This document shows, piece by piece, positions 9,811-10,762 of a DNA stretch of 38,221 nucleotides. The translations under genes were made by a program, and so were the position numbers. The notes beneath the pieces were generated by a model. That model made no database searches and was not told where the DNA came from. It saw nothing but the letters and a program-made list of their open reading frames with translations. The DNA is taken from NCBI GenBank assembly GCA_016839365.1, contig JAEOUH010000053.1:1-38221 (forward strand), read 5' to 3'. The DNA is from Candidatus Hermodarchaeota archaeon. Lineage in GTDB: Archaea; Asgardarchaeota; Hermodarchaeia; Hermodarchaeales; Hermodarchaeaceae. The number at the start of each line of letters is the position of its first letter. The stretch's first letter is position 1.

Positions 9811-10404
9811 CTATTCGATTAGGTCGAGTTTATTGAGGCGATACAAGAGGACTTCCACATCATCTTGGGTCATCCGCAGGTTTTCAGCGATTTCCTTTGG
9901 GGTTTTGTTGCCGCAACACTGTTTGGCGACATTATATTCGATTTCGCTGATTTGCCCTAATTTGACCATAAGTTTGGGAAGGCCTCGTTTTAGTTTGGGT
10001 TGGGGTGCATCCTTTTCGCCGATAAACCCGTTATTAAGCATTTGATTCAGTTCAGGAGTGAAGGAGAAGAAGACGAGTTTTCCATCCCATGCTTTGAGAG
10101 TTTCTTCATAAAGGTCTGAAAACCGTTCAATGACTTGGTCAAGGGCCTGAAGGACTTGGAGTCGGTTGTCTTCTTTGTCAACAACGGCAGCTATAACGAT
10201 GTAATCGCCAGCAGCATAGGTAATGTAGAATTCACCCATCTCGACGACGCGTGCTTCACCTTTCCCTTTTGAAATCATCCGGGCAAACTCACGGATTGCA
10301 GAAAAAAAGCCGGCCACTAGCGTCGAGTCAAGTTCTAATTCTCCAAATTTTTGGTCAAGGAGACAGACCCCGCTGGGATGCATCAGATAAACTACGTGTA
10401 GCAT
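9811..10404 (-). CDS. Longin-like domain protein with C-terminal winged HTH
   Basis: Starts at ATG 10404: MLHVVYLMHPSGVCLL...LDSTLVAGFFSAIREFA...F..ELNQML fits the longin/adaptin-sigma pattern. C-terminal KTPKEIAENLRMTQDDVEVLLYRLNKLDLI is an HTH. The track's extension to 10728 reads through the tRNA. Confidence 0.8.
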   Translation of the reverse strand: MLHVVYLMHPSGVCLLDQKFGELELDSTLVAGFFSAIREFARMISKGKGEARVVEMGEFYITYAAGDYIVIAAVVDKEDNRLQVLQALDQVIERFSDLYEETLKAWDGKLVFFSFTPELNQMLNNGFIGEKDAPQPKLKRGLPKLMVKLGQISEIEYNVAKQCCGNKTPKEIAENLRMTQDDVEVLLYRLNKLDLIE

Positions 10405-10459
10405 GCGTAAGGCCCCGTGGGAGAGGAAATCCGTAGTAGAAGCTAGGGTATTCGCAGTC

Positions 10460-10464
10460 AAAAA
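10460..10464 (-). terminator. Possible oligo-T terminator after the tRNA
   Basis: TTTTT on the - strand, 16 nt after the CCA. Confidence 0.35.
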
Positions 10465-10497
10465 GGTAACGATGGGAAATTGGTGCGGGGGGAGGGA

Positions 10498-10524
10498 TTT
10501 TCGGAGCTCGCAGTGCGCTGTTCC
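10498..10524 (-). other. tRNA intron 4, position 59/60 (27 nt)
   Basis: Outer GAGGG/CCCUC, central UUCG/CGAA, bulges AA|G and AA|U, inner GA/UC. Confidence 0.9.
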
Positions 10525-10555
10525 TTCGAACCCTCGAACCGCTGCCGGACAGGAT

Positions 10556-10576
10556 GTCTCATTTACCTGGTTAGAT
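10556..10576 (-). other. tRNA intron 3, canonical position 37/38 (21 nt)
   Basis: Central CUCA/UGAG, bulges AG|A and AC|A; the outer helix is the anticodon stem. Confidence 0.92.
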
Positions 10577-10583
10577 CTTGAGT

Positions 10584-10613
10584 AACGCCGTCTACCTGCC
10601 CTTGCAGGCGACT
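10584..10613 (-). other. tRNA intron 2, position 30/31 (30 nt)
   Basis: Relaxed BHB: central CGCA/GGCG (one A-G mismatch), bulges GG|A and UU|A, inner hairpin GUCGCCUGC/GCAGGUAGAC. A 31/32 register gives the same product. Confidence 0.82.
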
Positions 10614-10638
10614 CCTGCGCCGTTAACCAGGCTTGGCT

Positions 10639-10661
10639 GTGGGGTCTCCACCAGAAGAGAT
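10639..10661 (-). other. tRNA intron 1, position 8/9 (23 nt)
   Basis: Strict hBHBh': outer UGGC/GCCA, central GGGG/CCCC, bulges GU|A and AC|A, inner UCUCU/GGAGA. Confidence 0.9.
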
Positions 10662-10745
10662 ACCCCCGCCACCTGTAAGGCGGCAAAGACCCCTTTCGGA
10701 AGGGTCCCCCGCACGAGAGTTGTGGCAAAGGATTATTTCTGAATG

Positions 10746-10762
10746 TTTTAAACGTTTGTTTT
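10746..10762 (-). promoter_or_regulatory. BRE/TATA promoter of the tRNA
   Basis: AAAACAAACG-TTTAAAA on the - strand; implies a start site near 10725 and a leader of about 55 nt. Confidence 0.6.

Follow-up and report, generated by a model that had tools for sequence, protein, structure and literature searches.

A covarying helix between the 37/38 intron and the D-loop may bias splicing order in a four-intron tRNA-Leu(CAA) gene of Hermodarchaeota

In the tRNA-Leu(CAA) gene of a Candidatus Hermodarchaeota archaeon, nine bases of the intron at position 37/38 pair with the D-loop of the same precursor, and this intron-exon helix, here called helix P, is conserved and covaries among orthologs. The gene lies on the minus strand at 10712-10481 of the window (the whole stretch of DNA analysed, 38,221 nt of contig JAEOUH010000053.1) and is interrupted by four BHB introns, at 8/9, 30/31, 37/38 and 59/60; the 30/31 intron is intron 2 and the 37/38 intron is intron 3. 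The reading that we favour, though with slightly more doubt than confidence, is that the antisense segment was selected as a clamp on the D-loop, such that the 30/31 intron is cut first and the micro-exon between introns 2 and 3 is retained.

Introns were assigned by a BHB criterion in which a 4-bp central helix is formed by the exon bases 5' of bulge 1 with the intron bases 5' of bulge 2. The central helix is complete (4/4) at 8/9, 37/38 and 59/60 and has three of its four pairs at 30/31, which belongs to the relaxed class; at this site C25-C27 pair with GCG, an A.G mismatch is added, and the bulges are GG^A and UU^A. The anticodon stem serves as the outer helix of the 37/38 BHB, whose inner helix is nearly absent, and the T-stem serves as the outer helix at 59/60. 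The inner helix of the 8/9 intron contains two covarying pairs and is paired in 100% of the cells of the ortholog alignment. After in silico excision of the four inserts, ARAGORN recognized an 88-nt class II tRNA-Leu(CAA) in the window and in 16 orthologs, and the exons are invariant or nearly so across orthologs. The strings ACTCAAG (10583-10577), CAGGA (10617-10613) and TCCTG (10554-10550), cited in an earlier sequence-only reading of this DNA, were located on the minus strand; every string and coordinate of that reading is correct, and its statement that the exon between introns 2 and 3 is only ACUCAAG is borne out by the segmentation (Table 1).

In its unspliced form, the gene went undetected in the window by ARAGORN and by Rfam, with no family reaching the gathering score. 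The genome, which is 84% complete, yielded no second genuine Leu(CAA) gene; what ARAGORN called 'tRNA-Leu(caa)' on contig C77 proved to be a class I tRNA of 75 nt that contains an intron and had been miscalled. A box C/D guide reading of the 21-nt 37/38 intron was also discarded, as the intron has neither a C box (RUGAUGA) nor a D box (CUGA) and matches no Rfam family. The mechanical ORF at 9811-10728 on the minus strand crosses the tRNA gene, so the real ORF start must be further downstream. The spacing from the TATA-like box to the first acceptor copy is identical in all orthologs and in a tRNA-Leu(UAA) paralog. Some 10-25 nt past the tRNA 3' end, the block GTTACCTTTTTGAC (10451-10470, minus strand) is conserved in both genera compared below and probably represents the oligo-T terminator together with its context.

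Table 1. Features of the tRNA-Leu(CAA) locus, in window coordinates (^ marks the division within a bulge)
Feature	Position	Strand	Basis and remarks
TATA-like box TTTAAAAC	10745..10752	-	32 nt upstream of first GCGGGGG; read from sequence
Acceptor 5' strand, copy 1, GCGGGGG	10706..10712	-	invariant in 18 orthologs
36-nt 5' element, two covarying hairpins; intron or internal leader	10670..10705	-	covariation
Acceptor copy 2 and U8, tRNA positions 1-8, GCGGGGGU	10662..10669	-	BHB segmentation; G3-G6 = central helix of 8/9 BHB
Intron 8/9, 23 nt, canonical hBHBh'	10639..10661	-	GGGG/CCCC central helix; bulges GU^A, AC^A
Exon, positions 9-30: D-arm and 5' side of anticodon stem	10614..10638	-	segmentation, ARAGORN
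Helix P 5' strand, D-loop G15-A20b, GCCUGGUUA	10624..10632	-	MFE, RNAalifold, covariation
Intron 30/31, 30 nt, relaxed BHB	10584..10613	-	3/4 central pairs; strong covarying inner hairpin
Micro-exon ACUCAAG, 7 nt, positions 31-37, anticodon CAA	10577..10583	-	segmentation, ARAGORN
Intron 37/38, 21 nt, hBH type	10556..10576	-	CUCA/UGAG central helix 4/4, UGAG at 10561-10558; bulges AG^A, AC^A
Helix P 3' strand, bases 4-12 of intron 37/38, UAACCAGGU	10565..10573	-	MFE, RNAalifold, covariation
Exon, positions 38-59: 3' anticodon stem, long variable arm, T-stem, most of T-loop	10525..10555	-	segmentation, ARAGORN
Intron 59/60, 27 nt, canonical BHB atop T-stem	10498..10524	-	UUCG/CGAA central helix, 100% paired; bulges AA^G, AA^U
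Exon, positions 60-76 including encoded CCA	10481..10497	-	segmentation, ARAGORN
Oligo-T, likely terminator, in conserved downstream block	10460..10464	-	sequence and ortholog comparison

The sequence-only reading had recognized an 8-nt complement between the D-loop (CCTGGTTA, 10631-10624) and intron 3 (TAACCAGG, 10573-10566, both on the minus strand). This complement is real and extends to the 9 bp of helix P, a G15.U pair followed by eight Watson-Crick pairs, and the helix encloses the 30/31 BHB, which was fairly described as weak given its three of four central pairs. Helix P is present in the MFE structure and in the RNAalifold consensus, where it appeared unprompted. Another 9-bp pairing in the MFE structure, which joins the 5' element to the 3' end of intron 3 and the anticodon 3' strand, fails in ortholog L012 and was treated as chance. 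When intron 3 was shuffled, an 8-nt Watson-Crick complement to the exons arose with a chance of 0.5%, or 11% if any of the five inserts is allowed to score; such single-sequence odds are suggestive only, and it is the comparative data that decide.

Ortholog loci were taken from 14 genomes of the same genus and four of a sister genus, and eight more came from metagenomes, four of them distinct and new; one ortholog is that of Candidatus Hermodarchaeum yapensis. This gave 18 distinct same-genus sequences, the 13 complete ones of which were used for pairing statistics. Helix P keeps at least eight of its nine pairs in 18/18 distinct same-genus sequences and is 99.1% paired among the 13, whereas sliding the partners by 1-3 columns left pairing at 47% or less. 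Two pairs have changed on both sides: C17-G became A-U in the L010/L014 clade, and U20a-A became C-G in L013 and L073. Wobble changes also occur (G15.U to G15-C; G19-C to G19.U in L011), and the four further distinct metagenomic orthologs contain no violation of the helix. As judged by covariation, which comprises only two independent compensatory events, the pairing of helix P is shown to be selected. Covariation in orthologous loci had been named in the sequence-only reading as a check on the pairing, and once run it returned a conserved helix with these two double changes. Outside the family, exact-pattern scans of genome and metagenome contigs gave unrelated chance matches only.

In the sister genus (L016-L019), the 37/38 intron is shorter and carries ACC-N-AGG. 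To pair with the D-loop sequence CCUGG(UU), this motif would need a 1-nt bulge, and it shares bases with GGAG, the central-helix strand of the same intron; it may represent helix P in a decayed or an ancestral state. Both the 30/31 and 37/38 introns and the micro-exon are kept in these genomes without a contiguous helix P.

The 3' strand of the anticodon stem and UGAG are both located 3' of helix P, and their partners (27-31 and CUCA) are enclosed by it. Coexistence of helix P with either the anticodon stem (27-31/39-43) or the CUCA/UGAG central helix of the 37/38 BHB would be a pseudoknot in which a 3-nt linker spans a 9-bp stem, so by topology helix P should be mutually exclusive with both. 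We used ViennaRNA to calculate, for each of 32 intermediates of the window's sequence, what every BHB costs in free energy when it is forced; the earlier reading had counted 16 intermediates, and a fifth intervening element 5' of the gene may double the number. Nearest-neighbour energies of this kind leave out coaxial stacking, tertiary contacts and the protein. For the window's sequence, the model puts the full 37/38 BHB at 8.1-9.6 kcal/mol with intron 2 and 1.5 kcal/mol without it, and in all 13 same-genus orthologs the cost is 8-12 kcal/mol before removal of the 30/31 intron and 0.6-3.3 kcal/mol after. The full motif becomes cheaper by 5.6-10.9 kcal/mol once intron 2 is gone, and the four sister-genus orthologs change in the same direction. 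The sequence-only reading stated that the full CAGGA/UCCUG outer helix is continuous only after intron 2 has been removed; a contiguous CAGGA that can pair with UCCUG is also present in the unspliced RNA, since intron 2 begins with A. Pairing of that CAGGA with UCCUG in the unspliced RNA is not stacked on the 37/38 central helix.

The 30/31 BHB responds in the opposite sense to intron 3. Forcing it in the window's sequence costs 2.8-3.5 kcal/mol with intron 3 and 4.0-5.0 kcal/mol without it in the model, and the gain from helix P of about 1-3 kcal/mol kept its direction in 12 of 13 same-genus orthologs, being absent in L011. The 30/31 central helix has a modelled probability of 0.54 when the precursor is complete, 0.18 without the 5' parts and 0.02 without intron 3. 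In the absence of intron 3 the anticodon stem is predicted to form, with the intron's first A replacing A31, and to take up C27-G30. Introns 8/9 and 59/60 have no influence on the interplay of the other two in these calculations, and the cost at 59/60 is independent of the other introns. Replacing either strand of helix P by its complement in silico made the 30/31 BHB costlier in the majority of cases (up to 5 kcal/mol more), and complementing both strands restored the original cost in 10/10 cases. Two checks named by the sequence-only reading, folding of all intermediates and mutation of the segment with a D-loop compensation, have thus been run computationally; in the model, the 37/38 BHB is favored after loss of intron 2 and the 30/31 BHB while intron 3 is present.

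The effect is modest. Intron 3 as an internal guide for intron 2 is supported to the extent that its presence lifts the predicted 30/31 central-helix probability from 0.02 to 0.18-0.54, but the energy involved is small, and the stronger claim, that 30/31 is forced before 37/38, is not sustained. With intron 2 still in place, a relaxed 37/38 motif (i.e., without the outer helix) is modelled to require no more than 2-6.5 kcal/mol, orthologs differ in the balance between conformers, and the sister genus lacks helix P. In some orthologs (e.g., L004) the anticodon-stem conformer is predicted to dominate despite an available helix P, and in L010 and L013 helix P is predicted to be dominant still after removal of intron 2, so that the conformational switch, as modelled, is not clean and its balance varies between orthologs. 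Broad-specificity endonucleases cut relaxed motifs, so the order need not be strict. What the in silico data support is a bias in splicing order.

The 5' end of the gene bears on a second possible use of helix P. Copy 1 of the acceptor strand pairs with the tRNA 3' end in both the MFE structure and the RNAalifold consensus, and the 8/9 BHB is modelled to cost 3.3 kcal/mol with copy 1 and 6.5-8.1 kcal/mol without it; copy 1 can occupy the 3' acceptor strand, with copy 2 left to build the 8/9 BHB. The 43-nt stretch made up of copy 1 and the 5' element (10670-10712, minus strand) always co-occurs with the 8/9 intron in loci L001-L019, and L014 is without both. We checked eight registers of the 7-nt repeat by hand for a fifth canonical BHB intron and none fits; the best register (5/6) has three of four central pairs, reached only by using a leader base, and its flanking helices are absent. 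Removal of this element by RNase P, through a second cut at copy 2, is therefore as likely as splicing.

The tRNA-Leu(UAA) paralog (contig C19:56900-57060, plus strand; six orthologs examined, L043-L048) has copy 1, about 36-42 nt, copy 2 and an 8/9 intron, and none of the other introns. Its 5' element contains an 8-9 nt anti-D-loop segment, GACUAAGC, which extends the outer helix of the 8/9 BHB. The UAA copy 1 in the genome studied here has one G fewer. Sequestration of the D-loop is common to the CAA and UAA genes, and helix P could act on the 8/9 intron as well, or instead. A tRNA-Leu(GAG) gene (contig C74:4059-4174, minus strand) has a single 27-nt D-loop intron and lacks the duplicated-acceptor architecture, which is thus specific to the CAA/UAA gene pair.

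This leads to the most serious alternative, that the nested architecture alone sets the order, with the 30/31 intron interrupting the 37/38 outer helix, and that helix P most likely serves the 8/9 intron. It may do so by holding the D-loop next to the 8/9 outer helix (G10-A13), by preventing the D-stem and possibly by stacking on the 8/9 BHB. The UAA paralog speaks for this, as it bears an anti-D-loop segment contiguous with its 8/9 outer helix although it has no 37/38 intron, and shuffling that segment raised the modelled 8/9 BHB cost from 1.8-2.8 to 2.9-6.4 kcal/mol. In the CAA gene, helix P starts one base past the 8/9 outer helix, and the sister genus retains the predicted energy asymmetry of 30/31 then 37/38 without helix P. 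However, the 8/9 BHB of the CAA gene is not made cheaper by intron 3 in the model (3.3 kcal/mol with, 2.7 kcal/mol without), and ortholog L014 has lost the 8/9 intron and kept helix P intact, although L014 is close to L010 and its helix may have lacked the time to decay. We regard this explanation as unlikely on balance.

That helix P has no function at all is considerably less probable. It would then be a relic, such as an intron derived from antisense D-arm sequence, and its compensations would reflect chance or hitch-hiking in close genomes. Such a view can draw on the fact that there are just two independent double changes, a number reached by 7 of 500 shuffles that take no account of relatedness, on the 11% family-wise chance of an 8-mer in one sequence, and on the sister genus, which manages without helix P. 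A relic, however, does not readily account for the pattern of substitution on the intron side, where pairing is preserved or re-established by 4/4 substitutions but the two bases that follow the helix on its 3' side vary freely through many states, nor for the growth of helix P to 10-12 bp in several lineages. At U20a-A, the L010 clade does have an uncompensated C.A, which is matched by the compensated C-G of the L013/L073 lineage.

Helix P might also act by masking. The anticodon is not among the elements read by LeuRS, so failure to splice the anticodon arm would not in itself block charging, and G18, G19 and their neighbours are needed for the L-shape and for class II tRNA-Leu recognition. 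That helix P hides these bases until the last anticodon-arm intron is gone, so that molecules spliced only in part are not charged, CCA-repaired, modified or used, is the least probable explanation and a decidedly improbable one: the D-loop is sequestered by an intervening sequence in both Leu paralogs, and helix P persists in the model until intron 2 or, in some orthologs, intron 3 is removed, but the UAA paralog reads most simply as BHB support and the GAG gene shows no such segment.

Returning to a clamp that biases the anticodon-arm introns, the problem it would address is that of the micro-exon: if both flanking introns were cut at once, nothing would hold the 7-nt exon for ligation. In the proposed pathway, helix P would form, possibly before UCCUG is transcribed, and close a domain comprising positions 21-37 together with the complete 30/31 intron. 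Because the anticodon stem could not form, C25-C27, G29 and G30 would be available to the 3' end of intron 2 for building the weak BHB at 30/31; an (alpha-beta)2 splicing endonuclease would cut 30/31 first and RtcB would ligate. The continuous CAGGA-CUCA could then pair with UGAG..UCCUG, displace helix P and present the 37/38 BHB. The cuts on either side of the anticodon exon would in this way be separated in time, so the exon would never be released as a free piece. From the data above we infer the formation of helix P in vivo, its control of the order and the importance of that order for fitness.

The genome appears equipped for such processing. It encodes a predicted catalytic EndA alpha subunit of 186 aa with Tyr, His and Lys present (contig C43:37410-37664, minus strand; best PDB match A. 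pernix EndA chain 3P1Z_B, E 6e-46) and a 196-aa EndA paralog (contig C19:55223-55483, plus strand) that has Glu in place of the catalytic His and is likely, from its sequence, to be the structural beta subunit. Several tRNA genes, Leu(UAA) among them, are located no more than ~2 kb from the beta gene. An alpha plus beta subunit make-up is that of the broad-specificity (alpha-beta)2 endonuclease (PMC5829648, PMC4090602), and RtcB and RNase P RNA are encoded as well; from its gene content, the host is predicted to be able to cut non-canonical sites and to ligate the products.

The locus is transcribed in a relative. A metatranscriptome contig of 225 nt, which comes from a relative with 94% identity, covers 10711-10484 (C2 of copy 1 to the discriminator) and has no joints. 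This contig is an end-trimmed, fully unspliced precursor, and it shows transcription, not order. It was the single match in the assembled RNA contigs, found in run X20 (X19 and X24 had no match), and no spliced junctions or intermediates were seen in those contigs.

An obligatory order in nested archaeal tRNA introns has already been described (PMC3728597, citing Sugahara 2008). Nested pre-tRNAs of Crenarchaeota/Thermoproteales resemble the gene described here in having several BHB introns per gene, non-canonical positions and an (alpha-beta)2 endonuclease, and in that one BHB is complete only after removal of its neighbour, which in the present case is an in silico result. They differ in lineage, which here is Asgard, and in the presence here of a 9-bp covarying helix that links the later intron with a distant loop of the exons. 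The new element is this long-range intron-exon helix, which is located outside the BHB and is exclusive with the intron's own BHB; no comparable intron-exon clamp is described in the searchable literature on nested archaeal tRNA introns. The locus provides a concrete case, supported by covariation, in which an RNA element other than the BHB could determine the order of cutting.

Multi-intron pre-tRNAs of Cyanidioschyzon merolae lose their D- and T-arm introns before the anticodon intron, as seen by RT-PCR (PMC3728597, PMC9602550). Unlike the present case, C. merolae is a eukaryote in which the BHBs fold independently and the order tracks BHB free energy, with no long-range intron-exon helix. 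An intron that pairs with an exon of its own precursor for a purpose other than the BHB also has a parallel in archaeal pre-tRNA-Trp, whose intron encodes a box C/D guide (Singh et al. 2004, cited in PMC4090602). The 37/38 intron differs in its length of 21 nt and its lack of C/D boxes, and its pairing would act on folding, not on methylation.

Heavily interrupted tRNA genes with up to five inserts are known from other Asgard classes (PMC11291895; bioRxiv 10.64898/2026.10.13.758758), and the present gene resembles them in its many non-canonical introns, with BHB-compatible boundaries, of a kind often missed by annotators. Those studies focus on Atabeyarchaeia, Freyarchaeia and Jordiarchaeaceae, with no mention of Hermodarchaeota. 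In bioRxiv 10.64898/2026.10.13.758758, as in present studies of tRNA introns from archaea, Asgard lineages included, introns were scored singly in the fully spliced context, and splicing order, the interplay of introns and intron-exon pairing other than the BHB are not covered. A family of Hermodarchaeota now joins the Asgard lineages whose heavily interrupted tRNA genes are invisible to standard tools, and the locus is small enough for a direct test with one transcript and two recombinant subunits.

A wider reading, which is speculative and which we consider doubtful, is that anti-D-loop segments are general, selected cis clamps that program the fold pathway and splicing order of Hermodarchaeal class II pre-tRNAs. 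If true, the clamp would be carried by the 37/38 intron in the CAA gene or by the duplicated-acceptor 5' element in the UAA gene, and it would add to BHB recognition a timing layer that is independent of protein. Such a layer could explain how Asgard archaea tolerate four to five interruptions, micro-exons included, in one essential tRNA.

The tRNA set of the genome itself comprises 23 matches above the Rfam cut-off, and ARAGORN reports 32 genes, of which 17 contain an intron; the set lacks several isoacceptors. As in other Asgard classes, many of the tRNA genes of this genome are probably hidden by multiple introns.
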